A program made the position numbers and the translations under genes. Positions 21,777 through 63,490 of a stretch of DNA of 64,000 bases are shown piece after piece. Source of the DNA: an uncultured Pseudomonadales bacterium (lineage in GTDB: Bacteria > Patescibacteriota > Microgenomatia > UBA1400 > PJMF01); NCBI GenBank assembly GCA_964457085.1, contig CAYWDM010000003.1, positions 128,514-192,513 on the forward strand. Direction: 5' to 3'. The notes beneath the pieces are model-generated. The model had not been told where the DNA came from and made no database searches. It worked only from the letters and a program-made list of their open reading frames with translations. Every line of letters starts with the position of its first letter. The stretch's first letter is position 1.

Positions 21777-21973
21777 AGGCGCGTCAGAGACGGATAAAAA
21801 TGTCGCTACAGAATACTGTCAAATCAGGTACTTGTCAACTGAATATCTGTATTTGCCAGTGAATGAATAAAATTATAAAATAACGTTGATATATCAATAT
21901 AATTTTGCATATATACTCTATAGCAGATACACCATACATTGTAGTATGATTGGCAGGTGAGAGGACTTTAGCT

Positions 21974-22534: not shown

Positions 22535-22541
22535 TAGTTTT

Positions 22542-25775: not shown

Positions 25776-25849
25776 GGGCCGATAGCTCAGTTGGCTAGAG
25801 CGCCTGCATGGCATGCAGGAGGTCAGGGGTTCGAGCCCCCTCCGGTCCA
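25776..25849 (+). tRNA. tRNA-Ala (anticodon GGC)
   Basis: Acceptor GGGCCGA with a G3:U70 pair. D-arm GCTC-AGTTGGCTA-GAGC. Anticodon stem CCTGC/GCAGG with loop ATGGCAT gives GGC. T-arm AGGGG-TTCGAGC-CCCCT. One A7:C66 mismatch. Confidence 0.8.
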
Positions 25850-38500: not shown

Positions 38501-38544
38501 GACTTACAACTATCGAAGAAATATTACGTGTGGCAGATGTTTAA
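35542..38544 (+). CDS. pilB: Type IV pilus assembly ATPase PilB/GspE family, with a low-complexity N-terminal extension of about 430 aa
   Basis: C-terminal Walker A GPTGSGKTTT, Asp box, His box. GSPII_N-like domain (LTPEQLNQLKQELLTTGRSYDDLLI...). Residues 1-430 are A/Q/P/G/N-rich with internal repeats. Confidence 0.9.
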   Translation: MSEPVQNNQSAPAGTDPAVAASDAVAMADAAVSEADLSAALAEVDKMDATTSDGSDVVNSLSVDSAIEATIPSDSGEIEAVANSAAEQLSNESVPNQDQLDAIANQVEQTVFGEAESTSSNQTVNSEITPTISGVVVAQPTISPAPVSPAMVPRQVTPAPVAVAFQATPVAAIAPTVPPQIQNLSNQAPQMPPGYPQQGGFAPTSNQNTSFSSQMAPSLAQPQMGYQNNAGMGMQQPNTGQMNGGYGAAPGQQGGGQSFAQQMPMYQNGQYQNQNGQFGAQSPNQGQFLPQMQNLPNQASQMPPGYPLQGGFAPTSNQMSGQPNQTGGQSFTQQMPPGYPQQSFVGSAPPPSPQMQSQPVAPQALVPGTIISGPGASIASAVPNVNTASPTPPAPAPATPAPAENPAVTPPATPAPIISSGGFKTYSSLVDVLAEMQLLTPEQLNQLKQELLTTGRSYDDLLIEKKWLSEESLTKAKAKLNNLPFITIGETGISPEALSKLDESVAHRYGILPFAIDKVERKLSVAMKNPLDIQAVGFVEQKTGFKLAIYYASPTEIERIIVERYAQNLSSEVNEALKDTDQSKARHKEQTEQLNNFGGVIRDAPINRIVETILEFAVKSRASDIHIEPLPNKVRVRYRIDGILVEKLILPRSVIDAVVSRIKILGNMKIDERRIPQDGRFSYNNDEKNVDLRVSTIPTVHGEKINLRLLEKNLNVPTMEQLGLEGLSLANVKEAIKVPHGIILISGPTGSGKTTTLYSLIHILNTPKVNIVTLEDPVEYQMLGVNQVQINPKAGLTFSTGLRAFLRQDPNIIMVGEMRDRETTELAIQASLTGHLVFSTIHTSSAATALPRMIDMGAENFLIASSVTLIMAQRVVRKINPAYLEEYVPEPAVVADISKVLGVHFDNWLMQHGKTPQTVTLFRPSANRPENEPEYLGRMAIYEVLRMTEVIGRMVLQNRPASEIEQEALRNGMLLMKQDGYLKALNGLTTIEEILRVADV
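36088..36560 (+). repeat. Intragenic tandem duplication inside the pilB N-terminal extension
   Basis: 76-bp units at 36088-36163 and 36421-36496 differ at only 4 positions. The sub-repeat GGTGGCCAAAGCTT(T/C)(G/A)CACAGCAAATGCCA occurs at 36304 and 36520. CAAATGCCACCAGG(T/A)TATCC occurs three times. Confidence 0.6.
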
Positions 38545-38555
38545 ATGAGGAACAT

Positions 38556-39617
38556 ATGACAATTTTTGATGTACTTGAACTACTGATTAGCCAAAAGGGC
38601 TCAGACGTGCATTTGGCAGTTGGTCATGCTCCAGTACTGCGTGTTGATGGTGAGTTGCGAAGTCTTGAAGGTGCTCCAGCACTAACTGCCGAGGCAGTGG
38701 AAATGTTGGTTAAACCGCTGATGTCTCAAGAGCAGCAGACTCTATTTAAAAAGAATCGTGAGATTGATTTTGGATATCAATATGGTGAGGCTGGCCGCTT
38801 TCGTATCAATGTGTATCATTCACTAAATAACATGGCCGCAGCACTGCGGTTGATTCCTCCAAAAATCCTTACCATTTCTGATCTGGGATTACCAGATGTT
38901 TTCAATCAGTTCACACAGTTCAATCAAGGTTTGATTTTGCTCACAGGTCCAACTGGTGAAGGTAAGTCTACTACTCTAGCAGCACTTATCAATGAAATAA
39001 ATCGAATTCGAGCAGATCATATTTTAACGATCGAAGATCCTGTCGAGTTTGTGCATAAGCCAATTAAGTCTTTTATTTCACAGCGAGAATTGAATCAAGA
39101 TACAAACGACTGGACTGTGGCACTAAAGTCTGCACTTCGTGAAGATCCTAATGTTGTTCTGGTTGGAGAAATGCGCGATTACGAGACGATAGCGGCAACA
39201 TTGACTGTGGCGGAGACTGGGCATTTGGTGATGGCTACACTTCACACAAGTACAGCAGCACAAACAATTGATCGTATCATTGATGTTTTTCCTGGTACCC
39301 AACAAGGCCAGATACGTCAGCAATTAGCAGCCACAATTAAAGTAGTGGTATCTCAGCGTTTAGTACCAAAAATTGGGGGTGGCCGAGTTGCAGCTTTTGA
39401 AATCATGATTGTGAACGATGCAATTCGCAATTTAATCCGTGAACAGAAAACATTTCAAATCGATAACGTGATTCAAACAGCTGCAGAATCTGGAATGTTT
39501 TTGATTGAAACATACTTGCTGGATTTAGTTGGTCGAGGGGTGATCACCAGAGAAACAGCTATAGCTAGTGCTTTTCGACCTAGGGAACTTCAGCGTATGA
39601 TGGGTATTGGAAAATAG
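38556..39617 (+). CDS. pilT: Type IV pilus retraction ATPase PilT
   Basis: 353 aa. Walker A GPTGEGKSTT. HILTIEDPVEF. PilT-type C-terminus AIRNLIRE. Confidence 0.9.
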   Translation: MTIFDVLELLISQKGSDVHLAVGHAPVLRVDGELRSLEGAPALTAEAVEMLVKPLMSQEQQTLFKKNREIDFGYQYGEAGRFRINVYHSLNNMAAALRLIPPKILTISDLGLPDVFNQFTQFNQGLILLTGPTGEGKSTTLAALINEINRIRADHILTIEDPVEFVHKPIKSFISQRELNQDTNDWTVALKSALREDPNVVLVGEMRDYETIAATLTVAETGHLVMATLHTSTAAQTIDRIIDVFPGTQQGQIRQQLAATIKVVVSQRLVPKIGGGRVAAFEIMIVNDAIRNLIREQKTFQIDNVIQTAAESGMFLIETYLLDLVGRGVITRETAIASAFRPRELQRMMGIGK

Positions 39618-39626
39618 GATTTTAAT

Positions 39627-40832
39627 ATGCCGATTTTTGAGTACGTTGCTCGCAATTCTCATCAAGAAAAAGTCACCGGTAAAGTTGAGTCAAAAGGTGT
39701 AGCTCAAGCCGTGACCATGCTCACCTCTCGTGGTTTATTTGTAATTCGAGTTAAGCCATACAACGAGGGATCAATTGAGTTTATTAACAAAATGCTCAAT
39801 CGAATTGGATTCGTGGAGATCGTGACCTTTACTCGTCAGATGGCTACCATGATTACTGCGGGGTTATCACTTTCCAAAGCATTGTCGATTCTTGAACAAC
39901 AAACAAATCCTGAAATGGGCAAAATGGTGAGTACATTGCTTAAAGATGTAGAGACAGGAAGTACTTTTTCCAGTTCATTAGTTAAATATCCCAAAGAATT
40001 CAGTCGTGTATATATTCAGCTAGTAAAAGCTGGTGAGTTAGGTGGTGTTTTGGATAAAGTACTAGAGCGGTTGGCCATTAACCTAGAAAAAGAAAAAGAG
40101 TTTCAATCAAAGACAAAAGGTGCCTTAATTTATCCTATTATCGTTATGTCGGCGATGGGTGTAGTGGCTACCATCATGATGATTTTTGTGGTGCCAAAAT
40201 TGACGAGTATGTACAAAGATTTTGGTGCCAAAATGCCTACTCCTACTTTGGTATTGATGTCGATGTCTGATTTTATGGTCAATAATTGGTGGGTAGTGGC
40301 AATTATTGGTGTGATTGCGTATTTGTCGTTTCAAAAATGGCATAAGACACGCAACGGCCAGATTCAATTTGATAAATTTGTGTTTAAACTGCCTGTTTTC
40401 GGTGATTTGAAGAAAAAGATTGTAATTACTGACTTTGCACGCACATTAGCATTGTTGCTCAGCACAGGCGTTTCCTTGTTGGAGGCAATGGATATCGTGG
40501 CTGAAGCTGCAGATAGTTTGATTTACCGTGAAGCATTTCAGGATGCCTCAAAGATGGTGGAAAAAGGAGACAGTTTGTCTCAGGCCATTGCTAAATATGG
40601 TGATATTTTTCCGCCAATTCTCAACCAAATGATTGCTGTGGGTGAAGAAACCGGTAAGCTTGACGATGTTTTGCAAAAACTATCAGTATTTTTTGAAGCT
40701 GAAACAGAGCAAGCAGTTAAGAATATGACCACCGCAATGGAGCCAATGATCATGGTAGTTTTAGGTCTTGGTGTCGGTCTCTTGGTGGTGGCAGTGATTT
40801 TGCCGATCTATAGCTTGACTAGCTCGTTTTAA
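39627..40832 (+). CDS. pilC: Type IV pilus inner-membrane platform protein PilC / GspF family
   Basis: 401 aa with two T2SSF repeats (GLSLSKAL..., GVSLLEAMDIV...) and three TM segments. Confidence 0.9.
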   Translation: MPIFEYVARNSHQEKVTGKVESKGVAQAVTMLTSRGLFVIRVKPYNEGSIEFINKMLNRIGFVEIVTFTRQMATMITAGLSLSKALSILEQQTNPEMGKMVSTLLKDVETGSTFSSSLVKYPKEFSRVYIQLVKAGELGGVLDKVLERLAINLEKEKEFQSKTKGALIYPIIVMSAMGVVATIMMIFVVPKLTSMYKDFGAKMPTPTLVLMSMSDFMVNNWWVVAIIGVIAYLSFQKWHKTRNGQIQFDKFVFKLPVFGDLKKKIVITDFARTLALLLSTGVSLLEAMDIVAEAADSLIYREAFQDASKMVEKGDSLSQAIAKYGDIFPPILNQMIAVGEETGKLDDVLQKLSVFFEAETEQAVKNMTTAMEPMIMVVLGLGVGLLVVAVILPIYSLTSSF

Positions 40833-40884
40833 TTGATGTATTCTGAACTGTAAGTAGTAGCACTCATACGTGGAACGTATATAT

Positions 40885-41538
40885 ATGACAAAGCCTCGCC
40901 CGTCTTTCATCCAGAGTCTTGGTTTTACCATGATCGAGCTCTTGATTGTTATTAGTATCTTGGGTTTTCTAGCTGTTGCTGTGTTAGCGGCTATTAATCC
41001 AATTGAGCAAATTAATCGTGGTAAAGACACTGGAAGTCGCTCAGATGCTGAGCAGCTACTGTCATCAATTGACCGATATTACGCTTCGAATGGGTACTAT
41101 CCTTGGACGATTGGTCCAACCGATGTGCAAACTGGTACTAGTGCAGCTGGTAATGCAGCCGCAGGTTCTGGTGTACAAGTACTTTTTAACACAACTGTGA
41201 ATCCATTAGATGAAACAGGTTGCTCATGGGCAGCTAAACTCACCTCTGGAGATGCTTTAGTAGCAGGTTGTAATGGTGCAAATGAGTTGAAGGCTACCTT
41301 CACCACTCGTGTAATGCATCCAACAAACTACAACACATTACAGGTCTATAACCGAGGTAATCAGGGAGACAGTACCTATATCTGTTTCCAGCCTAAGTCA
41401 AAGCAGTTCTTAGATGACGCAAAGAATCGATGTGTGGATGCAGCAGGAAGCGGTTTCCCAGCTGATATTGCCATCGGTGCGGCACTGTGTGTCGATGCGG
41501 TGACAACTGGCACTGACGTCTGGAGCTGCTTACCATAA
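40885..41538 (+). CDS. Type IV (major) pilin candidate
   Basis: Prepilin leader ending ...SLG, then FTMIELLIVISILGFLAV with Glu at +5. Located directly after pilC and before pilD. C-terminal Cys pairs. Confidence 0.8.
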   Translation: MTKPRPSFIQSLGFTMIELLIVISILGFLAVAVLAAINPIEQINRGKDTGSRSDAEQLLSSIDRYYASNGYYPWTIGPTDVQTGTSAAGNAAAGSGVQVLFNTTVNPLDETGCSWAAKLTSGDALVAGCNGANELKATFTTRVMHPTNYNTLQVYNRGNQGDSTYICFQPKSKQFLDDAKNRCVDAAGSGFPADIAIGAALCVDAVTTGTDVWSCLP

Positions 41539-41553
41539 AGGTAAGATACAGCC

Positions 41554-42369
41554 GTGTTGTTTGTCTCATATTTGTTAGTTGGCTTCGCCCTGTTCTACTT
41601 TGGTGCGATAATAGGCAGTTTCGTAAATGTCTTTATCTACCGAACAGTACAGGGCGAAGATTGGGTAAATGGCAGATCTCGTTGTGAAGTCTGCCACCGT
41701 AAAATTCATTGGTACGATAATTTTCCGATACTTTCTTATTTGGTTTTAAATGGCAAATGTCGCTATTGCCACACTGGCATTTCGCCAATTCATCCTATTG
41801 TTGAGGGACTGATGGGCAGCCTGTTTGTTTGGTGGTATTTTATTGGCACTTTATTTTTTAGGTTAACTGAACAGCCTTACTCTGCGATACAACCTGCCTT
41901 TTGGTTGTTGGTTGGCATATTGTTGTTGGTGATTTGTGTAGCAGATTTACTGTATCTAATAATTCCTGATACTGCAGTGATATCACTGATGGTTTTGACA
42001 CTTACCTACCGGATAAGCTTAGCTGTTGGTGGCCAGATGCAGTGGCGAGATTTCGGCATGATGCTGGTTGGAATGGTAGGTCTTGTTGGTTTCTTCCTTT
42101 TTCTCTACTTTGTGACCAAGAAAAAAGGTTTTGGACTGGGTGATGTCAAACTTGCAGTGCCGCTTGCTTTGTTACTTGGGTGGCCAAAAATTGTGGTGGG
42201 CATATTTGCTGCATTTATATTTGGAGCACTCGTTGGTGGCGTACTATTATGGAAGAAACTAAGAACATTAAATAATGTATTGCCCTTTGCACCTTTTTTA
42301 GTAATCGGAGCATTGTTTTCACTGTTGTTCGGAGAGCAGATTTGGCAAATGTATTTCAGTCTGCTTTAA
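41554..42369 (+). CDS. pilD: Prepilin peptidase (A24 family)
   Basis: N-terminal CxxC...CxxC zinc motif (CEVCHRKIHWYDNFPILSYLVLNGKCRYCH). Catalytic GLGDVKL. Confidence 0.9.
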   Translation: MLFVSYLLVGFALFYFGAIIGSFVNVFIYRTVQGEDWVNGRSRCEVCHRKIHWYDNFPILSYLVLNGKCRYCHTGISPIHPIVEGLMGSLFVWWYFIGTLFFRLTEQPYSAIQPAFWLLVGILLLVICVADLLYLIIPDTAVISLMVLTLTYRISLAVGGQMQWRDFGMMLVGMVGLVGFFLFLYFVTKKKGFGLGDVKLAVPLALLLGWPKIVVGIFAAFIFGALVGGVLLWKKLRTLNNVLPFAPFLVIGALFSLLFGEQIWQMYFSLL

Positions 42370-42442
42370 TCAATAGTATGGATTGTGTGACTAAAAACAT
42401 CGTCAATGCTGTTTTGAGATCACATGATGCTGATAGCTGCCT

Positions 42443-43456
42443 ATGAGAATTCTAAAAGCACTATTTTTTTCCTTTGTAATCTTGTTGGTGACACTTATTG
42501 TTGTGGTGTATGGGGCTCGTGAAGTTTTGCTAATCGGCTCAACTTGGCTCATTTCTAGCCGATACAATCAAGTAGTGCAGTCAGTTGCTGCTGGTGATCA
42601 CAGACAAGAATGCATGAAACTTGGAGTGTTTGGAGGTGAAGCGTTCCCCCAACTTCGTTTCGTATCTAGCACCGAGTACTATGCCGAAGCAGTGTGCGGC
42701 ACATTGAGTGAGAGTGCATTAGTCATCACAAAATACAAACTGTGGCCACTGGTAACAAAGACCACTGGAGACTCTGGATTAACTGATCAAAAGAAACAAG
42801 CGGTGGTGGCATTGGAAGTTCTAGGACGAGTTGCCTCAGTAGAACAAGACGAATTTGGGAATACACACACCGTTTGGAGAAAAGGTAAGCTCATCTCGAC
42901 TGGTGCTGGACCAGTGACTAATTGTGGTGGATATGGCACAACCTGTTGTATTGAAGGTGAAGAGCAAGGCATTGGAGATCAGATTAAGGGTGCTCTAGAT
43001 TGTCCCAAAACTTGTTATGTTGCCTGTTATAGTCGGCCTGTAATCTTGGCGTTTAACTCTAACCCGTTTTATGACTATGAGAGCCGAATTTTGACTGTTA
43101 AGCGTGGTCAGACGATTGATTTTAGTTATGTGATTAGTGAATCACAACGCGATGTATTTGCTGATGCTCGTTTGAAGGAAAACACCGATCCACTTGCTAT
43201 TTTATTGTCGTTATCCAAACAACTTTTAAATACCAAAAAAATTGAGGCTGAAAAAGAGGCACTGAGGCAAGTGACACTTGATTTTGGCGATGGTGAAACC
43301 ACGACTTTAAGTAAGCTGCAAGATACCGGAAGCCACAGCTATACCTGTGCTCGAGAGCTTTGCAGATACACTGCAAATTTGTCAGCAAAAAATTACTATG
43401 GTGCCCAGACATTAGCTGGATATCTCAGCACGATCACTATTAATGTGGTACCGTAA
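42443..43456 (+). CDS. Membrane-anchored Cys-containing hypothetical protein within the pilus operon
   Basis: N-terminal TM anchor plus an extracytoplasmic domain with conserved Cys (CGGYGTTCCIEG, CPKTCYVACY). Confidence 0.5.
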   Translation: MRILKALFFSFVILLVTLIVVVYGAREVLLIGSTWLISSRYNQVVQSVAAGDHRQECMKLGVFGGEAFPQLRFVSSTEYYAEAVCGTLSESALVITKYKLWPLVTKTTGDSGLTDQKKQAVVALEVLGRVASVEQDEFGNTHTVWRKGKLISTGAGPVTNCGGYGTTCCIEGEEQGIGDQIKGALDCPKTCYVACYSRPVILAFNSNPFYDYESRILTVKRGQTIDFSYVISESQRDVFADARLKENTDPLAILLSLSKQLLNTKKIEAEKEALRQVTLDFGDGETTTLSKLQDTGSHSYTCARELCRYTANLSAKNYYGAQTLAGYLSTITINVVP

Positions 43457-43464
43457 AGGAAGCT

Positions 43465-43944
43465 ATGTTTGTACACACTCCCCTATTTCAACAACAAAGA
43501 CGACGGAAACAATTTGGTTTTAGTTTGTTAGAACTTTTAGTGGTTGTTTCTATTATTGGAATTTTGATTGCAATTGCTGCTGCTGCTTATTCCACAGCAC
43601 AGAAAAAAGGTCGTGATGCCAAACGTCGTGGAGATGTGGCTGCGATGCAAAAAGCCTTTGAACAATATAATGCAGCAAATAATGGTGCATATGACAGTGT
43701 GGGCACTAATTGTAGTGGTATGGTAAGTCTATCTGGTTCTGATTTTCTACCAGGCGGTTTGCCAGTTGATTCAAAAGGAAACCCCTATACCTGTTTCAAT
43801 ACAAGCTCTACTTACTGCATCTGCTCAACCGTACTTGAGGGTGGTGGTGGTAACACGCTCGCATTGCCAACCGATGCTGATTGTGCCGGAATTGGGGCTC
43901 CCGCAGCAGTAAATACGTATTTTTGTACCAAAAATTTGCAATAG
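43465..43944 (+). CDS. Type IV pilin-like protein
   Basis: Prepilin motif ...KQFG, then FSLLELLVVVSIIGIL. Confidence 0.75.
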   Translation: MFVHTPLFQQQRRRKQFGFSLLELLVVVSIIGILIAIAAAAYSTAQKKGRDAKRRGDVAAMQKAFEQYNAANNGAYDSVGTNCSGMVSLSGSDFLPGGLPVDSKGNPYTCFNTSSTYCICSTVLEGGGGNTLALPTDADCAGIGAPAAVNTYFCTKNLQ

Positions 43945-43947
43945 CAT

Positions 43948-44376
43948 ATGCTAAAAATAATGCAGAATTTACAATTAAAAACTCGTAGACGTCAGGGTGG
44001 TTTTTCAATGATTGAGCTGTTGGTGGTGGCGACGTTAATAATCATTTTGACCATGATTGGACTGGTGAGTTATAGCAAGACATTGGTGAATAGTCGTAAT
44101 GCACGTCGCAAAGCTGATTTAGAGGTGATGCGACAAGCACTCGTTTTATATAAACTTGATAATGGTCGCTATCCTAATCAACAAGGTGTCCATGCTGAAG
44201 CAGTGACCATCGGCAGCAGCTATCTGCAAACCGCACCGCTAGATCCAAAAAATGATGCTACTTATTTTTATCAATACGATGGGACAGGAACTTGCACAGT
44301 AGCTGGCTGTACCACCTTCACTTTAACTGCAAGGCTAGAATCAAGTGCAACCGTGTACTCAGTAAATAATCCATAA
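43948..44376 (+). CDS. Type IV pilin-like protein (PulG-like)
   Basis: Prepilin motif ...RQGG, then FSMIELLVVATLI. Confidence 0.75.
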   Translation: MLKIMQNLQLKTRRRQGGFSMIELLVVATLIIILTMIGLVSYSKTLVNSRNARRKADLEVMRQALVLYKLDNGRYPNQQGVHAEAVTIGSSYLQTAPLDPKNDATYFYQYDGTGTCTVAGCTTFTLTARLESSATVYSVNNP

Positions 44377-44384
44377 AGTATCGT

Positions 44385-44927
44385 ATGGAACAGCACTACT
44401 TAACGAACTGGAGGTCTGTTCATAATTCAAAAAGTGGTTTTACTTTGATTGAAATGTTAGTTGTCGTAGCAATCGCAACTCTATTTGTTGGTGGCGGTTT
44501 AGCGGGATTCATGAGTTTTAACTCACGCCAAAAAGCTATAAATGGAGCCAAAGAATTGGAGCAGATAATTAAAATTGCAGAAACAAAAACTCAATCAGGA
44601 GTGGTCGGCGTTTGTAATCAACTTGAGGCATATGAAATCACTTTTGACACGGCCGTTGATCCTGTGATTGTTTCGCTACAAGAGGTGTGTGCCACTGGCG
44701 AGGTAGTAACTCCTGTTGCAACAGAATATCCCCTGTCCCAGGGAGTTTCGATGTCGTTTAGTCCTGCCACCACGTATATTCGTTTTAAAATCTTAAGCGG
44801 GGGGCTGCTGTTTAGCAGTGGTGCCAGCAGCATTCAAGCACAATTTGAAGATGCAAATAACCCAGGTCAAGTATATGCAGTTACCATTTCCGAAGGAGGC
44901 GATGTCAGTGAAGGCGATTGGCTCTAA
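44385..44927 (+). CDS. Type IV pilin-like protein
   Basis: Prepilin motif ...SKSG, then FTLIEMLVVVAIATLF. Confidence 0.75.
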   Translation: MEQHYLTNWRSVHNSKSGFTLIEMLVVVAIATLFVGGGLAGFMSFNSRQKAINGAKELEQIIKIAETKTQSGVVGVCNQLEAYEITFDTAVDPVIVSLQEVCATGEVVTPVATEYPLSQGVSMSFSPATTYIRFKILSGGLLFSSGASSIQAQFEDANNPGQVYAVTISEGGDVSEGDWL

Positions 44928-45405
44928 ATTTCATCGAGGAACTTTCTTCCACTCTCAATTGGGGTTTGGAATCATGGAGGTGGTCATCTCGATTGGTATT
45001 GTCGGTTTAATTTTGACCGCAATTTCTAGTGGTCTGATTTTTTCACTTAAAACTAATGCAGAAACCAAGTTTCGAGGTATTGCACTGAGTAAAAATCAAG
45101 AAGTTTTTGAAGTTATTCGTCGGGAACGCGTGATCAGAGGTTGGGATAGTTTTTTACAACTATACGGTGGGGGTGTTGCCGGGACATATACTTATTGTCT
45201 TAATTCCGCAAATATACTGGATCACGCCAATTTCCCTCCTGCAGCTGCCGCCTGTGTTGATACGGTTGATTGGGAAGGAAATGACTACATTCGTGAGCTA
45301 GTAGTTGATACAACCACTGTTGGCCAAATCGGTTTTACCTCGACGGTATACTGGCAGGGTCGTGACAAGCAAATTCAGCTCTCACAGACACTCAAGAGTT
45401 GGTAA
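44902..45405 (+). CDS. Minor pilin-like protein (start uncertain; overlaps the previous gene)
   Basis: ...HSQLG then FGIMEVVISIGIVGLILT. Prepilin-like, with Glu at +5. Confidence 0.45.
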   Translation: MSVKAIGSKFHRGTFFHSQLGFGIMEVVISIGIVGLILTAISSGLIFSLKTNAETKFRGIALSKNQEVFEVIRRERVIRGWDSFLQLYGGGVAGTYTYCLNSANILDHANFPPAAAACVDTVDWEGNDYIRELVVDTTTVGQIGFTSTVYWQGRDKQIQLSQTLKSW

Positions 45406-45465: not shown

Positions 45466-46020
45466 TTACAGATTTTGGTTTCTCACTGAAACACCAGAAC
45501 GGAACTCACGGATGATGGTTTCTGAGTCGTTACCAGCACCTTCTCCTCGTTTCAGTTTGAAGTAAATCTCAACGTAATTTTGTTTGTTTTCACCCTCATA
45601 GCAGTTGAAGGTGATGGTGTTAGCAGGATCTAATGCCATTGAATCCGAACTGAGATAGTAAATTTTTCCGGTTGTGGTCGAAGTTGAAGCAATTCGACCA
45701 TTATCTGCTCCAAGTATAGTGATGCCGCCATCGCCATTTTCGAGCTCAAGTCCAGAGATGATGCCAGCCACACAGGTGGTGTTGATTTTACGAGCATTAC
45801 GAATAATAAAACTCATTCGATCGATTGCTCGCTCTCCCTCACTCTTGGCTTTTTGCTCAAAGTTGGATTTAGCTGAACTTATCACAAATGACATAAAAAA
45901 ACTTGAGACAGTGGTCAAAAGTATAACTGAGATTGTGGTTACAACCAACAACTCAATTAGGGTAAACCCAGATTGATTCGAGTATTCAGAGAACCTACTT
46001 TGTGAGACATGCTGACGCAT
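45466..46020 (-). CDS. Type IV pilin / pseudopilin-like protein
   Basis: ...NQSG then FTLIELLVVTTISVILLT. Last gene of a minus-strand operon with the Cys-rich adhesin candidate. Confidence 0.7.
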   Translation of the reverse strand: MRQHVSQSRFSEYSNQSGFTLIELLVVTTISVILLTTVSSFFMSFVISSAKSNFEQKAKSEGERAIDRMSFIIRNARKINTTCVAGIISGLELENGDGGITILGADNGRIASTSTTTGKIYYLSSDSMALDPANTITFNCYEGENKQNYVEIYFKLKRGEGAGNDSETIIREFRSGVSVRNQNL

Positions 46021-55879: not shown

Positions 55880-57928
55880 TCAATTGTGGAGGATTTTTGT
55901 GTCTTCATCTCCCCAATCAATGAGGGGAACCCAGGTATTTGGTTGTACTGCATCTATTTTGTCAGACATAGTTTTTGCCTGTTGTATCAGTTCAAAATTC
56001 GTCCAAGAAGCAAAGCGCAACTCATCAAGTCCATGTTGAGTAGTGCCAAAAATATCGCCCGCTCCACGTCTTTTTAAATCGAGTTCAGCTAATTTAATAC
56101 CACTATGTTCTTTAGTGAATACAGTTAGGCGAGTTTTTGTTTCAGCTTGTTTGCTTGAACTGAATAATAAACAGTAACTTTTTTGCCCTGCCCGTCCTAC
56201 TCTACCTCGTAATTGATGTAGGCTGGCTAATCCAAAACGCTCAGCTGCTTCAATAATCATGATATCGGCTGCAGGAATATCGACTCCAACCTCAACAATT
56301 GGGGTGGTAACCAGTAGCCGAATTTTATTGGCAAATAAGTCAGCAATGATTTGATCTTTTTCTGTGGGTTTTAGCCTACTATGAAGTAGTGACATCGTAA
56401 TGTCTGGTTTATTGGCAAATTGTTGTTGTAGTGTGGCGAATGTCTCGGTAGCTGCCGCGACATTTTCCAGTGATTGCGTGGCTGACGGATCAATAAAGGG
56501 ACAAACCACTAATGCCTGACCAGGTCTGTCAGGATTTGCGAACAACTCTTTGCTCATCCAATCTAAGGCACCGGTTCGTTTCGACTCAGGCACATACCAA
56601 GTAGTAACTGGCTGTCTGCCCTCTGGCAATTGTTCAATTGTTGATAGTGATAGATGCGAGAAAATCGTGAGCATCAAACTTCTGGGAATGGGTGTAGCAG
56701 TCATAGTGAGAATATGTGCGTTGTGTGCGGCTGCGGTCAATTTGTTGGAAACTGAACTCTCGACAGCATCTGTCACTCCAAGAGATCGCTGTTTGACTCC
56801 AAAACGATGTTGCTCATCGTAGACAATTAGTCCTGGTTTAATGTCAACAAGTTTATTGATGACGCTGTGAGTACCGATAAAGAGTGTTGGTGACAGTGTC
56901 TGTAAATCGAGAGAACTTTTTGCTTTGGTGGTAAGACTGGTGATTAATTTGATTGGGATATGTGGAAATTGAGTACTGAGTCGATCGGCATGTTGTTTAG
57001 CTAGAATTTGGGTGGGTGCGGCGATAACGCTATGTTGTCCAGCCAAAACCATTTGCACACAAGCAAGTGCGGCCACAATGGTTTTCCCTGATCCTACATC
57101 GCCAACAAGCAATCGATTCATTGGTTGGTTGGAAGTTAAATCTGTGACGATTTCGGCGAGTGACTTTTCTTGATCAGCGGTAAGTGTGTAGGGTAAGTTG
57201 GTGGGAATAATCGGCAGAGTTGGCTTAATAGCAATGGCATTCTGTCGCTGTTTCCAATAGTTTTTTAATTGTTTGGATTTATGAATCAATGCTAAAAGTT
57301 CTTCGAGTGCCAGCCGTTCTCTCGCCAGTATTAATGACTCACTGTCATCTGGGAAATGTAATTGTTGAATTGCTTGGATAATATCGGTCAACTCAGTGAT
57401 TTGGGCAGCTGATGGCTCGAGATTTGAGATAACGCTTTTGAGAATTCGTCTCAGACTCCCCTGTTTGATAGCAAGTGTCGAGGAATAAACCGGCACCAGT
57501 CTCCCGGTGTGAATAGTATCGGTTTTGACTGCCTCTACAGTGGCCTGAGTCAAAACTCCACGGTTTGAGATTTTGCCGGAAAAGTAAAAATCTTTTTCTT
57601 CATCGAGGGTGTGCTTGATATAGCGATTATTAAACCAAAAAGCCTTGAGCTGACCAGAATCATCGGTGAGCGTGGCTGAAGTGATCCGCCGACCAGTTTT
57701 GTAAAATTCATTCACTTTGCTAATTTGTGCCTGGATAGTCACAAATTGCTTAGGATCGTTGAGTGCAATGGCCTGCTCAATATTTAGTTTGCTACTTCGG
57801 TCTTCATAACGAAGAGGTAGTGTTAACAATAAATCTTTAACAGTGATAATTCCTTGCTTAGCACACAACTCGACAGTTGCTTTTCCCACCCCATGAATTG
57901 CTCGAAGTGGATCAGTAAGCTGGTACAT
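55880..57928 (-). CDS. recG: ATP-dependent DNA helicase RecG
   Basis: Wedge/OB N-terminal domain. Helicase motif I LVGDVGSGKTIVA. DEQH motif. Motif VI QLRGRVGRAGQKSYC. Confidence 0.9.
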   Translation of the reverse strand: MYQLTDPLRAIHGVGKATVELCAKQGIITVKDLLLTLPLRYEDRSSKLNIEQAIALNDPKQFVTIQAQISKVNEFYKTGRRITSATLTDDSGQLKAFWFNNRYIKHTLDEEKDFYFSGKISNRGVLTQATVEAVKTDTIHTGRLVPVYSSTLAIKQGSLRRILKSVISNLEPSAAQITELTDIIQAIQQLHFPDDSESLILARERLALEELLALIHKSKQLKNYWKQRQNAIAIKPTLPIIPTNLPYTLTADQEKSLAEIVTDLTSNQPMNRLLVGDVGSGKTIVAALACVQMVLAGQHSVIAAPTQILAKQHADRLSTQFPHIPIKLITSLTTKAKSSLDLQTLSPTLFIGTHSVINKLVDIKPGLIVYDEQHRFGVKQRSLGVTDAVESSVSNKLTAAAHNAHILTMTATPIPRSLMLTIFSHLSLSTIEQLPEGRQPVTTWYVPESKRTGALDWMSKELFANPDRPGQALVVCPFIDPSATQSLENVAAATETFATLQQQFANKPDITMSLLHSRLKPTEKDQIIADLFANKIRLLVTTPIVEVGVDIPAADIMIIEAAERFGLASLHQLRGRVGRAGQKSYCLLFSSSKQAETKTRLTVFTKEHSGIKLAELDLKRRGAGDIFGTTQHGLDELRFASWTNFELIQQAKTMSDKIDAVQPNTWVPLIDWGDEDTKILHN

Positions 57929-58036
57929 AGAGCTAGAACAATAATGCTGTGGCTAGACTGCCAACAAGCATTGAGGCTATTGCGATGATAGCGAAAATTC
58001 GCAGCAATAACTGGCGTTGTTTTTTGGTCATATTTC

Positions 58037-59239
58037 CTATTTTTTGATAACAGAAAAATAAGTACGTTTACCCACTTTAATTACTTGGCCATCAGCTATC
58101 TCAATTGGTTCTGGTGAGTTAGTTAGTGCGGTGCCTTGTGGTACTAAGCTTACAGCTTTTTGATCGAGTAGTCGACGGATATCACTATTACTTGTTTGAG
58201 ACATGCCCATTTTTACCAATTCAACAGCTGAGATTGCAGTATCTGGCAATTGATATACAGAAATGTCGGTCGGCAGTGCTTTTTCTTGAACAGTTCGTTG
58301 GAAGTTGGCTGCGGCCACATCAGCAGCTGTTGTGGAGTGTAGCTGACTAGTAATGGTGTGAGCCAATCGTTTTTTGTATTGCATGGGATTTTCACCACTG
58401 GTCATGGCTGTTGCCATTTGTTCAATTTCCTCGAGAGCAACATCAGTAAGCAGGGTAAAGTATTCAACGATCACACTATCGCTAATGCTCATCAGTTTGC
58501 CGTACATATCAGTAGCATTTTCGTTGAGGGCAATAAAGTTGTTGTAACTTTTGCTCATCTTGCGGCCATCAGTGCCATTAATGATTGGTGTAGTGAGTAC
58601 CCATTTTTCGTGGTTATTGTAGACGTGTTGCAGTTCACGACCCATCATCATGTTAAAGGTTTGGTCGGTGCCACCAATTTCCAGATCCACATTCATAGCA
58701 ACCGAGTCGTAACCTTGAAGTAACGGATACATGATTTCATGGCCGAAGATTGGCAAGCCATTTTTAAGACGGTCTTGAAACATATCACGCTCAATTAGTT
58801 GCTGAATCGTGGTTTTGGCCATCAACTTAACGATATCCACAAAGTTGAGTTTGTCGAGCCAGTCGCCGTTGCGGCGAATCTCAATCATTGAAAAATCAAG
58901 CACTTTGCTTGCCTGTTCTTTCCAGGTAACAAAATTAGCATCAATTTCACTGTCAGTTAATGTTGGACGAGTAGAATCACGGCCGGTGGGATCCCCGATT
59001 CGCACAGTACCATTGCCAATGAGCAAGATTACTTTATGACCAAGAGTGGCAAATTGTTGTAGTTTTCGTAGGGCAACCGAGTGCCCTAGATGTAGCAATG
59101 ATCCGGTTGGATCAATGCCTAGATATACGGTTATGGGTCGTTCGCTGAGCAATTGAGCCAGTGAGTCTCTCTTGGGAAGTATCTCTGCAACACTACGGTG
59201 CAAAATTTGGTGAATGGCTTGAGGATCGGTGTTTTGCAT
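58037..59239 (-). CDS. tyrS: Tyrosyl-tRNA synthetase
   Basis: HIGH-type motif (LHLGHSVAL), KMSKS, and a C-terminal S4 domain. Confidence 0.95.
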   Translation of the reverse strand: MQNTDPQAIHQILHRSVAEILPKRDSLAQLLSERPITVYLGIDPTGSLLHLGHSVALRKLQQFATLGHKVILLIGNGTVRIGDPTGRDSTRPTLTDSEIDANFVTWKEQASKVLDFSMIEIRRNGDWLDKLNFVDIVKLMAKTTIQQLIERDMFQDRLKNGLPIFGHEIMYPLLQGYDSVAMNVDLEIGGTDQTFNMMMGRELQHVYNNHEKWVLTTPIINGTDGRKMSKSYNNFIALNENATDMYGKLMSISDSVIVEYFTLLTDVALEEIEQMATAMTSGENPMQYKKRLAHTITSQLHSTTAADVAAANFQRTVQEKALPTDISVYQLPDTAISAVELVKMGMSQTSNSDIRRLLDQKAVSLVPQGTALTNSPEPIEIADGQVIKVGKRTYFSVIKK

Positions 59240-59313
59240 GACACAGCAATTGTATCATCGCTTAATCTGGCAAAACTAATTAAAAAGCGAATAGATGATA
59301 ATAACGTCTCAAA

Positions 59314-60585
59314 CTAAACTTTCTCCGTTAATAATTTTGAAACTGCCGCTACATCTTGGGAAATTTGTTTGGTTAAGTCTTCTTTTTTAGAGAACAGAAT
59401 CACCTCTCTGAGTCTAGCTTCAATAGTGACAGTGATTGGGATCTGATTCTCAATTAAGTTTGTGGGTATGCTGTCGGTATCCAGCAAGAAAATCTCAATG
59501 GTTGGAACAGGTTTGTCAAAAGTCGGGATAGGACCGAAGTGTAGAGCTCCCTTGTAGCGATGACCAGCAATTTGAACGTGAGCTGCATAAATACCATGTG
59601 CCAGATTAAGGTTAGCGGGTATTTCGAGATTTAGAGTTGGGAAACCCATTTTTTTACCTCTGCCATCCCCTTTTTGTTGTCTTGAGACAAATTTGACGAC
59701 TAATAGCTGTTGGTTATGCTTGGCTATTTGCCAAGCAGAAAATAATAAGGCTGCCGCGGCCAAGTACTGCGTAGTGTTCAAACTGGTGTGGTACATTTTG
59801 GCATCGATAATCACAGCCAGAACTGGAAAAAATAACTCCAAGATTGTTGCAGTCGTAGCATTAGTTCGTTTTAGTCCTTGGTAGTAGATGGCCAAGGCGA
59901 CCATTCCAGTTGAGAACGCGATAATAAATAAGTTAAGTACTTGAGTAAAATTGATGGCGGTGAGTGCTTGTTGTGAGGGGAAAAACAGTAGCGCAACTAG
60001 ACCAATGGCGGTGGTCAATAGAAAACGAAGTGCGGTGGTGGCATTGGCAGGCAGTCGTAGTAATAACCACCTAGAAAAAACAGTAGAAGTGCCCCAAGCT
60101 GCAGCAGCACCCAGCGCCATTAACGCTGCTAGGTTGGTATTGCCAGCAATGGCGATTTTTCCACTGGGGAAAGTCATAAAAAATCCAGCTAGCAAGGCAA
60201 TGGCTGACCAAACAAGCTGTGATTTATTAACTTTTTCTCGAAGAATTATGGTGGCGGTGGCAAAGACAAAAATAGGCTGTAGTTTTTGCAATAGAAATAC
60301 AATGCTCATGGGAATAAATTGAACTTGTAGTAAGGCCGCAGTGAATAGTACGGTGCCAACCAAACCACTGAGCAGTGAAACTAGCCCAACCATTCCCCAC
60401 TCTTTTGTGGTGAGTTTGGTCAAGACATGTCTGAATTGCCAAAGTATTGGCAATAACAGGACTAACCCAATTGCGTGTTCAGCAGTCACAATTGTGAGTG
60501 GCGGCAAACTATAGAGGTTGCGACGAAGTAAGCCGTCAAGTGCCCAGAGTATTGCTGCAATGATGATGAGAAGTGGTCCAAACAT
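59314..60585 (-). CDS. Fusion protein: EamA/DMT-family 10-TM transporter (N-terminal) plus riboflavin kinase domain (C-terminal about 130 aa)
   Basis: The N-terminal 290 aa is polytopic DMT-like. The C-terminus GRGKKMGFPTLNL...GIYAAHV...GALHFGPIPTF...IEIFLLD...REVILFSKKEDLTKQISQD matches the RibF flavokinase domain (GFPTAN, GVYA, NIG.RPT, E.HLLD). Confidence 0.75.
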   Translation of the reverse strand: MFGPLLIIIAAILWALDGLLRRNLYSLPPLTIVTAEHAIGLVLLLPILWQFRHVLTKLTTKEWGMVGLVSLLSGLVGTVLFTAALLQVQFIPMSIVFLLQKLQPIFVFATATIILREKVNKSQLVWSAIALLAGFFMTFPSGKIAIAGNTNLAALMALGAAAAWGTSTVFSRWLLLRLPANATTALRFLLTTAIGLVALLFFPSQQALTAINFTQVLNLFIIAFSTGMVALAIYYQGLKRTNATTATILELFFPVLAVIIDAKMYHTSLNTTQYLAAAALLFSAWQIAKHNQQLLVVKFVSRQQKGDGRGKKMGFPTLNLEIPANLNLAHGIYAAHVQIAGHRYKGALHFGPIPTFDKPVPTIEIFLLDTDSIPTNLIENQIPITVTIEARLREVILFSKKEDLTKQISQDVAAVSKLLTEKV

Positions 60586-60724
60586 AGTGGCGAAGTATAT
60601 CTTGCAGCTTATGGGGTGACTGTAACAAATACTACTAATTTTTGGTGTGATTTATTGACTGACTTTTTATATTATAGAGGTATTTCTAGTTCATGAGTGG
60701 TCATCCTCTGTTACAATTGTGACA

Positions 60725-63490
60725 ATGCAACAAGTTTGGCAGCGGTGGCGATTCAGCTTAGAAGCCTGGACAGGGTTATTATTACACCGAGTGCAAAGTC
60801 TTGGATTGTTTGCAAAACAGGCACATATGTTTAAGCAATTAACCCGATCACGTAGAGCACTGTCTCAAGAAGAACGTAAGCTTCAGACCATGCGGCTGGT
60901 GCGATGGCTGGCACTCGGATTTGTGTTCTTAGTCATTTTGGGAATCATTAGCTTTTTTGGCTTATTTGCTTGGTACTCTCGTGATTTGCCTAAGCCTGGA
61001 CAAGTAGTGCGTCGTGAAGGATTCAGTACCAAGATTTATGATCGCAAAGGGGCATTACTCTATGACTTGTTTGATACAGAGCGACGTAACCCTATTCTGA
61101 TTAAAGATGTCCCAGAAAATCTCAAACATGCGACTGTGGCAATTGAAGACAAAGATTTTTACAAGCACAGCGGTTTTGATTATCTAACACTGCTTCGAAT
61201 TCCTTATAACGTCATTGCAAAACAGCGTGTAGTTGGTGGTTCAACATTAACGCAACAGCTGGTTAAAAATGTCTTGCTGACGAGCGATCGTACGATCTCA
61301 CGCAAATTTAAGGAATTGGTGTTGGCAGTTCAGCTTGAGCGAACTTTTACTAAAGATCAAATTTTAGAGATGTATCTAAATGAAGCCCCATATGGCGGTA
61401 CTGCTTGGGGTGTGGGCACAGCATCTGAAGTCTATTTCAATAAAAAAGTTCAGGATTTGAACTTGATTGAGTCAGCTGTTTTGGCAGGTTTGCCACAACG
61501 TCCCAGCGTCTATTCCCCATACGCAGGCAAGCAAGATGAAAATGGTGACGCCTATTGGAAAGTCCGTGGTCGAGGCGTACTAATGCAGATGCGTAAAAAT
61601 AATTACTTGGATGAAGCGGGCTACGAACAAGCAATGAAGGATATCGAAAATCTAACCTTTCAACGCGCTAATTCTGACTTGCAGGCTCCCCACTTCGTTT
61701 TTTATGTTCGAGAGGTGTTGGAAAAAATGTACGGCGAAACACTTGTCGAAAAAGGTGGCTTGTCTGTCACCACTTCACTAGATTTGGAAATGCAACATGA
61801 GTCAGAGCGAATCGTGATGGAGGAAATTGAGAAAGTTAAAGATTTAAATATTACTAATGGCTCGGTGATGGTGACTGATCCACGAACTGGTGAGATTTTG
61901 GCAATGGTGGGAAGTAAGGACTATTTTGATCAGACCATCGACGGACAATTTAACGTGGCAGTTAATGGACTGAGACAACCTGGATCATCAATTAAACCAA
62001 TCACTTATTTGGGAATGTTTAGACGTGGATACACACCTGCAAGTATGCTGGCTGATGTGCCTACCAAATTTACTCCAGAAGAAAAAGACAAGCCATACGA
62101 ACCAAAAAACTATGACGGCAAGTTTCGTGGAGCCGTGAATTTGCGCAATAGTCTCGGCAGTTCACTGAATATCCCAGCGGTTAAATCACTCGCTATCGTA
62201 GGTGTAGATAACTTTTTGAAGTTGGCCTATGAAATGGGATTCCCAACCCTCGAGCCAACTGAAGACAACATGAAGCGATTCGGCTTGGCCGTTACCTTGG
62301 GTGGTGCTGAGGTGCATTTGATCGATACTGTGTCGGCATATAGTGCGTTTGCCAACGGTGGATTAAAGGTCTCCCCAATTTCAGTACTCAAAGTGGCAGA
62401 TAAAGACGGCAAGGTACTGTTTGAACAAAAAAATGTGGCTGGTCAGCGGGTAATGAGTCCTGAAGAGTCATTTTTAATTAATAGCGTGTTATCTGACAAC
62501 AATGCTCGGTTAATGGCATTTGGTGTCAATTCACTGCTCAATACGGGCAAACCAATAGCAGTTAAAACTGGAACAACTAACGATCAGAAAGATAACTGGA
62601 CTGTGGGTTGGAGCCAAGAAATCATGGTTGGTACTTGGGTGGGTAATAGCAATAACACACCAATGAAAAAAGTTGCTTCAGGTATTACCGGTGCTTCCCC
62701 GATTTGGCGTCGGATCATCATGATGGCTTTGGAAAAAGGGTATAAAGCTCCCGAGTGGAAAGTACCTGATGGTATTGAACAACTTGAACTGGATACCATC
62801 AGTGGCTACACCAAACACGATGATTTTCCTTCAAAAAATGAGTATGTAGTCAAAGGATCAGCACTGACTGGACCAGATCCAATTCACACCAAGCTAAAGA
62901 TGTGTCGAGGTGAAAACAAACTCGCAACTGAAGCTCGAATTGCTGCTGGTGACTACGATGAGCGTGAATCAATCGTGCTTAAAGAAAATGATCCAGTTAG
63001 TAAAGACGGTGTTAATCGTTGGCAACTGGGAATTGATGGCTGGGTTGGCGGTCAAGAAGACAGTCGCTATAAAGTGCCAACTGAGTTTTGTGGCAGTAGC
63101 AGCGATGTGTTTGTGAGATTAAACAGACCTGAAAATCAAAAGAGTTATGGCGAAGAAGAGATTGAAGTTCAAATTGAATCAGACAGTGGCGATGGCATCG
63201 AAAAGATTGAGCTATGGGCGGATGGCAGTCTGCGCGAAACCATCACTAGCCGTTCATATACTGGCAAAATCAAACTATCTCCAGGTCAACATGAGCTATT
63301 TGCCAAGGCCCGGTCACGAGGCGGTAAAGATGCTCAGAGTGGCACAGTGTTCATCGGTACTGGTGGTCAGGATTGGAAGAAGCCGGAGCCAACTGCGGTG
63401 CCTCAACCCACTAATACTCCAGTGCCTACAGTAACTCCAACACCAACAGCAGGTGCATTACCAACACTGACCCCCACACCTTCTATTTAG
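60725..63490 (+). CDS. Class A penicillin-binding protein (PBP1A-type transglycosylase/transpeptidase), with a C-terminal Pro/Thr-rich extension
   Basis: GT51 motifs EDKDFYKHSGFD and GGSTLTQQLVKN. TP motifs SSIKP (SxxK), SLN, KTGTTND. Start uncertain (60725, 60827 or 60890). Confidence 0.9.
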   Translation: MQQVWQRWRFSLEAWTGLLLHRVQSLGLFAKQAHMFKQLTRSRRALSQEERKLQTMRLVRWLALGFVFLVILGIISFFGLFAWYSRDLPKPGQVVRREGFSTKIYDRKGALLYDLFDTERRNPILIKDVPENLKHATVAIEDKDFYKHSGFDYLTLLRIPYNVIAKQRVVGGSTLTQQLVKNVLLTSDRTISRKFKELVLAVQLERTFTKDQILEMYLNEAPYGGTAWGVGTASEVYFNKKVQDLNLIESAVLAGLPQRPSVYSPYAGKQDENGDAYWKVRGRGVLMQMRKNNYLDEAGYEQAMKDIENLTFQRANSDLQAPHFVFYVREVLEKMYGETLVEKGGLSVTTSLDLEMQHESERIVMEEIEKVKDLNITNGSVMVTDPRTGEILAMVGSKDYFDQTIDGQFNVAVNGLRQPGSSIKPITYLGMFRRGYTPASMLADVPTKFTPEEKDKPYEPKNYDGKFRGAVNLRNSLGSSLNIPAVKSLAIVGVDNFLKLAYEMGFPTLEPTEDNMKRFGLAVTLGGAEVHLIDTVSAYSAFANGGLKVSPISVLKVADKDGKVLFEQKNVAGQRVMSPEESFLINSVLSDNNARLMAFGVNSLLNTGKPIAVKTGTTNDQKDNWTVGWSQEIMVGTWVGNSNNTPMKKVASGITGASPIWRRIIMMALEKGYKAPEWKVPDGIEQLELDTISGYTKHDDFPSKNEYVVKGSALTGPDPIHTKLKMCRGENKLATEARIAAGDYDERESIVLKENDPVSKDGVNRWQLGIDGWVGGQEDSRYKVPTEFCGSSSDVFVRLNRPENQKSYGEEEIEVQIESDSGDGIEKIELWADGSLRETITSRSYTGKIKLSPGQHELFAKARSRGGKDAQSGTVFIGTGGQDWKKPEPTAVPQPTNTPVPTVTPTPTAGALPTLTPTPSI

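Follow-up and report, generated by a model that had tools for sequence, protein, structure and literature searches.

The 64,000-nucleotide (nt) stretch of DNA analysed here (positions 128,514 to 192,513 of contig CAYWDM010000003.1, assembly GCA_964457085.1, hereafter the window) encodes a single protein in which a transporter of the EamA/DMT type is joined to a riboflavin kinase domain, and we consider it probable, at roughly 70%, that this fusion is a riboflavin salvage protein in which the carrier would import riboflavin and the tethered kinase would trap it as flavin mononucleotide (FMN). The first-pass annotation of the window had proposed such a pairing of a transporter with a trapping kinase, and the proposal now draws support from the genomic linkage of the two functions, from FMN riboswitches in relatives, from a fusion of the same carrier family to a second kinase family (PF01982) and from the conservation of catalytic residues, each of which is presented below.

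The gene is one uninterrupted open reading frame (ORF) on the minus strand with an ATG start and encodes 423 amino acids (aa). In Pfam the N-terminal part scores 112 bits for EamA (PF00892), matched in two stretches (E 2.6e-32; cutoff 28), and residues 301-418 score 80 bits for Flavokinase (PF01687) and span profile positions 9-123 of 124 (E 2.2e-22; cutoff 19.6), so that both halves lie above threshold, as expected of the EamA plus flavokinase ORF originally described, and the peptide motifs quoted for it are present in the ORF listing. Its description as a complete flavokinase domain needs qualification, since the profile coverage and the catalytic residues agree with it but the DxYG adenine-binding motif is missing (see below). 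The bifunctional RibF models of NCBIfam are matched by the C-terminal kinase third only, which indicates that the fusion protein has no FMN adenylyltransferase module, and Pfam likewise gives no match to this module (PF06574, FAD_syn); NCBIfam also reports a weak match to the YedA exporter. The parts of the gene, with transmembrane abbreviated as TM, are as follows.

59314..60585, minus strand: whole fusion gene, 423 codons with the stop codon at 59314-59316; two EamA repeats and a Flavokinase domain.
59710..60585, minus strand: transporter domain with the DMT fold, residues 1-292; two EamA repeats together contribute 10 TM helices, and both termini are predicted to be inside (N-in/C-in).
59698..59709, minus strand: very short linker, at about residues 293-296, from TM10 to the first strand of the kinase barrel (AlphaFold2 secondary structure).
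59317..59697, minus strand: monofunctional riboflavin kinase domain, residues 297-423 (Pfam, PDB sequence matches and Foldseek).
59629..59640, minus strand: PTLN (P316-T317-L318-N319), the PT-phi-N phosphate/Mg2+ motif; the reverse complement CCAACTCTAAAT reads P T L N.
59494..59496, minus strand: E364 (codon GAG), counterpart of the catalytic base E268 of the Corynebacterium ammoniagenes FAD synthetase CaFADS by alignment to 5a88.
60586..60718, no strand assigned: divergent intergenic region of 133 nt located 5' of the fusion gene, in which no FMN riboswitch was found.

The fusion is not peculiar to this contig. Three contigs carry an identical 423-aa protein; among them are one of 228 kb from NCBI and one of 63 kb from Logan, and two of the three are separate assemblies. 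The same architecture is seen in 75 further clusters formed at 90% identity, of which the six nearest share 64–70% and the other 69 share 42–51% identity with the window protein. These homologs are 409–436 aa long with a single exception of 519 aa, and among representatives chosen at 50% identity there are at least 13 full-length fusions with identities down to 28%, eight of which were re-checked with Pfam. The first-pass annotation had recommended looking in relatives for a frameshift or stop between the two parts and surveying the fusion more widely; all six of the closest relatives are fused, and besides the 75 clusters the fusion occurs in 21 of 80 loci from GTDB species representatives. 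Public annotations refer to the homologs as 'EamA family transporter', 'DMT-like permease' or 'hypothetical', and our full-text literature searches found no description of an EamA/DMT–riboflavin kinase fusion or of a riboflavin transporter in bacteria of the Candidate Phyla Radiation (CPR), in keeping with the earlier remark that no such report was known. The sequences are therefore already public and it is their function that has gone unrecognised.

We compared the genomic arrangement of the two parts by scanning one genome per GTDB species with two peptide patterns derived from the transporter, which returned 257 relatives, and by retaining the best 80 of these, with the loci being chosen by transporter motifs alone. 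All six-frame ORFs were then scored with separate hidden Markov models for the transporter and kinase parts. The named records are overwhelmingly CPR/Patescibacteria (Roizman-, Davies-, Woese-, Gottesman-, Chisholm- and Pacebacteria and Berkelbacteria, with further records for Nomura-, Komeili-, Lipton- and Staskawiczbacteria and 'Paceibacterota'); one submitter's metagenome-assembled genomes form a block with generic titles (for example 'uncultured Pseudomonadales'), which we did not trust. The arrangements found were as follows, where T>K and K>T denote a kinase gene immediately downstream or upstream, respectively, of the transporter gene on the same strand.

Transporter and kinase fused: 21 of 80 loci.
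Kinase immediately downstream of the transporter, same strand (T>K): 30 of 80 loci.
Kinase immediately upstream of the transporter, same strand (K>T): 16 of 80 loci.
Divergent genes: 5 of 80 loci.
Convergent genes: 1 of 80 loci.
Frameshifted kinase downstream of the transporter: 1 of 80 loci.
No kinase within the stretch examined: 6 of 80 loci, two of them on contigs of less than 2.3 kb.

An intact kinase is consequently fused or adjacent to the transporter in 73 of the 80 loci, in five different arrangements, with a frameshifted kinase in one more, and where the two are not fused the kinase is still adjacent in 53 of 59 loci (the frameshifted kinase being counted). The T>K pairs are very tightly spaced: in 29 of 30 the start of the kinase domain falls in the interval from 14 nt ahead of the transporter stop codon to 35 nt beyond it, and in 20 of 30 the closest start codon comes no later than the end of that stop codon, giving an overlap of 1–26 nt with the 3' end of the transporter gene. 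Only one in-frame stop separates the transporter and kinase reading frames in three of these loci (L002, L006 and L008), so that fusion and fission are one mutation apart. In rough neighbour-joining trees (drawn without support values) the fused genes fall into about six clades interleaved with split pairs, and the transporter and kinase trees are broadly congruent. Overall, this transporter family is tightly coupled to riboflavin kinases in evolution. A kinase-only homolog search, limited by its word index, gave 13 matches, each a stand-alone kinase of about 120 aa; separate 120-aa kinases belonging to the clade of the fused kinase adjoin the transporter, and one of these is named riboflavin kinase by NCBI.

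No other conserved neighbour emerged when the 1776 ORFs of the loci were clustered, and we found only housekeeping synteny specific to particular clades (e.g. aminoacyl-tRNA synthetases, DnaB, M1 peptidase and pterin dehydratase). The last of these, a pterin-4a-carbinolamine dehydratase (PF01329), forms a cluster present in 12 K>T loci, and in locus L074 a PF01329 gene (2599-2952) lies directly downstream of the transporter gene (1706-2617). We also note a 574-aa protein (P0154) of the same transporter family, with the hallmark motifs kept, in which a C-terminal HAD-superfamily hydrolase (PF12710/PF00702) replaces the kinase; this could be a flavin phosphatase or something unrelated.

An unexpected result came from an Rfam scan of 20 loci, in which FMN riboswitches were found directly 5' of the transporter gene in three. 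A covariance model of our own, made from these three and run over all of the loci, found ten, and nine of the ten are confirmed by Rfam RF00050 (75–107 bits against a gathering score of 66.2), representing nine of the 80 species. They lie on the transporter strand, 60–160 nt ahead of the first aligned codon of the transporter, and match the full FMN aptamer model (positions 1-138). Their positions are given here with the number of the locus.

L066:1331-1450, plus strand: FMN riboswitch, Rfam-confirmed.
L046:69-188, plus strand: FMN riboswitch, Rfam-confirmed.
L034:5722-5838, plus strand: FMN riboswitch, Rfam-confirmed.
L008:5708-5840, plus strand: FMN riboswitch, Rfam-confirmed.
L037:4860-4999, plus strand: FMN riboswitch, Rfam-confirmed.
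L049:5806-5940, plus strand: FMN riboswitch, Rfam-confirmed.
L071:5811-5940, plus strand: FMN riboswitch, Rfam-confirmed.
L057:5814-5940, plus strand: FMN riboswitch, Rfam-confirmed.
L051:5773-5899, plus strand: FMN riboswitch, Rfam-confirmed.
L077:5742-5893, plus strand: match to our own model only (69.7 bits), below the Rfam gathering score.

Four of the riboswitches precede T>K operons, another four that are Rfam-confirmed, together with that of L077, lie between a divergent kinase and transporter, and that of L037 precedes a transporter which has no kinase nearby. Some relatives of the window transporter are therefore under riboswitch control, and possession of an FMN riboswitch was the criterion by which the riboflavin transporters RibU, RibM, RibN and ImpX were first predicted (PMC4418817). 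At the window gene itself RF00050 gave no match (at the Rfam gathering threshold across the whole window, and at E<=10 in 60400-60900), nor did our own model find a match anywhere in the window. There was also no riboswitch before the transporter homologs of Calditrichota, Melioribacteraceae and a 4.7-Mb genome, or before the probable archaeal fusion described next.

This second fusion (P0169, 428 aa) has a transporter 35% identical to that of the window protein (among the 50%-identity representatives) with the WxxDG, EH and QKLQP motifs kept, and carries at its C-terminus a riboflavin kinase dependent on cytidine triphosphate (CTP), PF01982 (E 3.3e-29), in place of PF01687. It was seen in two metagenome samples (loci L088:8001-9287, plus strand, and L089:735-2021), and its host is probably archaeal because the 30.8-kb contig also encodes the archaeal/eukaryotic marker Rpp14, a subunit of RNase P. 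Three more clusters (P0282-P0284) share the architecture, making four in total, and the domain order, linker length and total size (420–433 aa) are the same as in the PF01687 fusions. The nearest stand-alone transporters to P0169 include proteins in records named Aenigmatarchaeota, Micrarchaeota, Woesearchaeota, Nanoarchaeota, Cloacimonadota, Calditrichota and Melioribacteraceae. As the kinase belongs to a different Pfam family and the host is probably archaeal, the PF01982 fusion is an independent event, and it is hard to explain why one carrier family should have been fused to a second riboflavin kinase family unless the substrate of the carrier is riboflavin.

The AlphaFold2 model of the window protein, built with 75 homologs, is of high predicted quality (pLDDT 90.4, pTM 0.87) and consists of ten TM helices (residues 2-24, 29-50, 60-87, 94-114, 121-138, 150-175, 180-201, 213-239, 243-265 and 271-290) followed by a beta-barrel with a terminal helix. 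TM10 ends at residue 290 and the first kinase strand begins at 297, a gap of about six residues, and the gap between the transporter and kinase profile matches is similarly short, at 5–10 residues, in 22 of 22 fused genes. Foldseek matched the N-terminal part to the DMT transporters LicB (7paf, E 1.8e-8, target TM-score 0.77) and YddG (5i20, E 2.4e-8, target TM-score 0.77) and also to nucleotide-sugar and triose-phosphate translocators, and the C-terminal part to riboflavin kinases from human (1q9s) and C. ammoniagenes (5a8a), with root-mean-square deviations of 2.0–2.4 A and target TM-scores of 0.72–0.74, and likewise to 1nb0 and 1n06; none of the Foldseek matches was a solved chain combining the two parts. 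When lysines and arginines are counted on the loops between the modelled helices, 11 fall on the cytoplasmic and three on the opposite side in the N-in/C-in orientation, which places the kinase on the cytoplasmic side of the membrane where nucleoside triphosphate is available. The high pTM for a two-domain chain suggests that the kinase may be docked in a fixed position beneath the carrier, and a hand-over of substrate from one to the other can be hypothesised. Within the transporter, 41 residues are invariant across 81 species whether fused or unfused, many of them polar or aromatic and inside helices (they include W14, D17, R21, E36, H37, E117, W164, R187, Y234, Y235, E250, D261 and Q273), which argues for one orthologous family with one substrate.

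The PDB sequence matches of the C-terminal domain are RibF/FADS kinase modules, and we aligned it with the module of CaFADS, extending the comparison to 74 related kinase domains and Escherichia coli RibF. P316-T317-x-N319 corresponds to the 207-PT-phi-N-210 motif of CaFADS (T208/N210), E364 to E268, G351-P-I-P354-T-F to the flavin-site consensus G-x-x-P-T-[FVI], and R393 and D411 to the R292-D310 salt bridge, with the flavin-binding and ribityl-contacting residues of the window protein being canonical. The threonine and asparagine of PT-phi-N and the Arg-Asp pair are found in 74 of 74 kinase domains and the catalytic glutamate in 72, with aspartate in the other two. In CaFADS the PT-phi-N motif has a phosphate/Mg2+ role, E268 is the proposed catalytic base, and substitutions at T208, N210 and E268 abolished or nearly abolished FMN production, with traces of flavin adenine dinucleotide (FAD) remaining in E268D, consistent with a very slow kinase (PMC2573891). 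The catalytic residues, whose absence on proper alignment the first-pass annotation had named as a reason to abandon the fusion's proposed role, are thus conserved. The nucleotide side of the site is different: the D277-x-Y279-G (DxYG) loop, in which D277 and Y279 of CaFADS are proposed to stabilise the adenine and ribose of adenosine triphosphate (ATP) in canonical enzymes, is absent and ...TNLIENQ... is found there instead. The DxYG tyrosine occurs in none of the 22 fused and three of the 27 T>K kinases, and in 16 of the 16 K>T kinases, while the fused and T>K clades retain GxxPTF, the PT of which is missing from the K>T kinases. Judged from the alignment, the catalytic core is intact and the nucleotide pocket of the fused-kinase clade is unusual.

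In the salvage function that we propose, the 10-TM DMT/EamA carrier would move riboflavin inward across the membrane, and the kinase, tethered by 5–10 residues to the cytoplasmic end of TM10, would immediately phosphorylate it to FMN. As FMN is charged it would not diffuse back, and this metabolic trapping or 'vectorial phosphorylation' would keep an inward riboflavin gradient. By analogy with PnuC/NadR and RibM/RibF, phosphorylation may pull uptake through a carrier which itself is perhaps only a facilitator. More speculatively, product inhibition of the kinase might provide feedback in the fused genes, which are without a riboswitch.

A need for flavins in the host is indicated by a flavin-containing amine-oxidase/FAD-dependent oxidoreductase-like protein encoded elsewhere in the window, which points to a requirement for FAD in particular.

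7374-8876, plus strand: flavin-containing amine-oxidase/FAD-dependent oxidoreductase-like protein, 500 aa (PF01593, PF13450, PF01266).

The first-pass annotation had seen no riboflavin biosynthesis genes in the window, and this holds within the limited sensitivity of our searches: phmmer with the E. coli RibA, RibB, RibC, RibD and RibH proteins and the N-terminal domain of RibF gave no match in the window or in the approximately 0.9 Mb of loci (a weak negative from single-sequence queries), and none appeared when 40 large ORFs of the window were annotated with Pfam.

Several points weigh against the salvage function. EamA/DMT proteins are often exporters and the inward direction is deduced from context, and the transport and kinase activities of family members are predicted ones. 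ATP use or full activity is not assured in a kinase clade that has lost DxYG. No FMN riboswitch precedes any of the 22 fused genes, the window gene included, and riboswitch and kinase are both missing from the surroundings of the Calditrichota and Melioribacteraceae transporter homologs that we looked at. Some members may therefore carry something other than riboflavin, and we do not extend the riboflavin assignment to the whole family. Some CPR lineages have been reported to make riboflavin (PMC9166423, PMC11188291), and an FMN adenylyltransferase for the FMN-to-FAD step was not found in the window by a weak phmmer test.

A more far-reaching form of the same idea is that the fusion is a true vitamin group translocator independent of the phosphotransferase system, in which the kinase site is docked under the inward cavity, riboflavin is handed over and is at no point free in the cytoplasm before its phosphorylation, and occupancy of the kinase (by FMN or nucleoside diphosphate product) gates the carrier. 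Such a device would have arisen on two or more occasions, from different kinase families in CPR bacteria and in archaea, and the clade without DxYG might use a donor other than ATP. We put this forward tentatively, as a possibility that is on the whole improbable.

The C-terminal domain might alternatively be a regulatory module, a pseudo-kinase or 'trigger' that binds riboflavin or FMN and gates the transporter and does not make the FMN of the cell. The loss of DxYG in the fused, T>K and divergent clades would fit such a sensor, as would the lack of a riboswitch before the fused genes, which would need some other form of feedback, and archaeal RbkR provides a precedent for the use of a riboflavin kinase domain as a sensor (PMC5397151). 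RbkR nevertheless retains kinase activity, the residues for phosphoryl transfer (PTxN and the catalytic glutamate) are kept in 72–74 of the 74 domains compared here, and the transporter also has separate 120-aa kinases from this clade as neighbours, with NCBI naming one a riboflavin kinase, all of which leads us to regard a pure sensor as unlikely.

It is distinctly unlikely, in our view, that the pair handles a riboflavin-like compound (a deazaflavin precursor, a roseoflavin-type analogue or a lumichrome-like product) or uses a donor other than ATP in a reaction beyond simple FMN synthesis. The divergent nucleotide loop of the fused clade and the loss of GxxPTF from the K>T clade could be read in this way, and transporters are known to be controlled by rare FMN-riboswitch variants whose ligand specificity is altered (PMC6298564). 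The riboswitches found here, however, score as standard FMN aptamers over model positions 1-138, the flavin-binding and ribityl-contacting residues of the window protein are canonical, and the kinase of the archaeal counterpart belongs to a bona fide riboflavin kinase family.

Export of a flavin (FMN or riboflavin, for example for extracellular redox reactions or for a host), with the kinase preparing the exported species, seems very unlikely despite the many characterised EamA/DMT proteins that are exporters and the weak match to YedA. Riboflavin synthesis genes were not found near the 80 loci or in the window (phmmer with E. coli queries), an organism with a reduced genome would pay a high price for exporting a phosphorylated cofactor, and the normal response of FMN riboswitches to high FMN is to switch off supply genes, a behaviour in keeping with importers (PMC4418817). 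Finally, 30 relatives have two separate genes, often one frameshift or stop away from fusion, but an assembly or sequencing artefact joining two adjacent genes can be ruled out for practical purposes by the identical protein on three contigs (those of 228 kb and 63 kb included), the fusion of all six nearest relatives, and a fused state that is consistent within clades in both trees.

The neighbours of the fusion gene are tyrS and recG, which lie downstream on the same strand, and a gene for a class A penicillin-binding protein from which it diverges; none of the three is flavin-related. A promoter and terminator scan of 57900-60800 gave matches no more numerous than in shuffled sequence. Elsewhere, the window carries a type IV pilus cluster (35542-45405, plus strand, and 45466-46020, minus strand) of a kind typical of CPR episymbionts. 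It includes a PilB-like ATPase of 1000 aa, which is greatly extended at its N-terminus so that the T2SSE domain starts at residue 603, together with a PilT-like ATPase, PilC, a prepilin peptidase, two ORFs (44385-44927, plus strand, and 45466-46020, minus strand) with N-terminal methylation motifs, and interspersed ORFs for which there was no Pfam match. A YebC/TACO1-like ORF (21950-22534, plus strand, 194 aa) covers only positions 2-55 of the 160-position profile of the second and third domains and is overlapped by an ORF (22464-23309, plus strand, 281 aa) with no Pfam match, which may reflect a frameshift, truncation or domain replacement. GyrA (28941-31796, minus strand, 951 aa) matches the DNA_topoisoIV profile in two separate stretches and only from residue 97 onwards, a pattern that suggests extra sequence at the N-terminus and an insertion within the protein. 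A tyrosine recombinase/integrase (24568-25506, plus strand; PF00589 with a SAM-like N domain) has a tRNA gene (25776-25849) at a distance of about 270 nt and could be XerC/D-like or mark an integrated element.

If correct, our interpretation assigns riboflavin salvage to a widespread family, present in at least 257 GTDB species representatives, that has been labelled only as 'EamA/DMT family transporter' or 'hypothetical', and would fill a gap in what is understood of flavin cofactor acquisition by the ultra-small CPR bacteria, which depend on hosts, and probably by DPANN-type archaea. The fusion acts as a natural 'Rosetta stone' tying a carrier to its trapping enzyme, and the second kinase family lends this link unusual strength. 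As a compact system of one gene, the fusion could serve to ask whether phosphorylation drives uptake through a DMT carrier, and it provides a sequence signature by which dependence on riboflavin might be predicted from metagenomes. The coupling of transporter and enzyme is clean and directly testable, it occurs in organisms whose acquisition of nutrients is poorly understood, and it has a convergent archaeal counterpart.

Among known systems, facilitated uptake is pulled by cytoplasmic phosphorylation in PnuC/NadR for nicotinamide riboside and in RibM/PnuX with RibF for riboflavin. These are like the logic proposed here in that a kinase traps the vitamin and makes a weakly energy-coupled carrier directional; they consist, however, of separate proteins with transporters of the Pnu family, whereas here there is one polypeptide or what would be a translationally coupled pair. 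The kinase has the same fold as the RibF/FADS modules of C. ammoniagenes, Thermotoga maritima and E. coli and the monofunctional riboflavin kinases (human RFK and Schizosaccharomyces pombe Fmn1), and shares with them PT-phi-N, the catalytic glutamate, GxxPTF and the Arg-Asp salt bridge. It differs from RibF/FADS in having no FMN adenylyltransferase module, in its N-terminal membrane-transporter partner, and in the absence of DxYG from its clade.

Riboflavin kinase domains have repeatedly been recruited into bifunctional proteins of flavin homeostasis, and plants have a fusion of an FMN hydrolase with a riboflavin kinase. Archaeal RbkR combines a CTP-dependent riboflavin kinase with a winged helix-turn-helix regulator (PMC5397151). 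The partner is a HAD phosphatase in the plant protein and a DNA-binding regulator in RbkR, and in neither case a transporter; the EamA–PF01982 fusions (P0169 and P0282-P0284) have the same carrier family as the window protein with an archaeal-type, CTP-dependent kinase.

The nearest characterised transporter type is RibN, which is also a single-component DMT-family permease (about 296–300 aa) with a likely role in riboflavin uptake; the Aeromonas salmonicida ribN gene (891 bp) is annotated as 'DMT family transporter' (PMC10012899), and RibN is controlled by an FMN riboswitch in some lineages (alpha-proteobacterial) and not in others (PMC4418817). RibN (from Rhizobium leguminosarum, Ochrobactrum anthropi, Vibrio cholerae and Aeromonas) has been reported from alpha- and gamma-Proteobacteria only, as a stand-alone protein neither fused to nor paired with a kinase, and its likeness to the CPR transporter family is established at the superfamily level only. 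The principle itself, with a DMT riboflavin importer on the one hand and a riboflavin kinase on the other, is known, and it is the fusion of the two that is new to the literature we searched.

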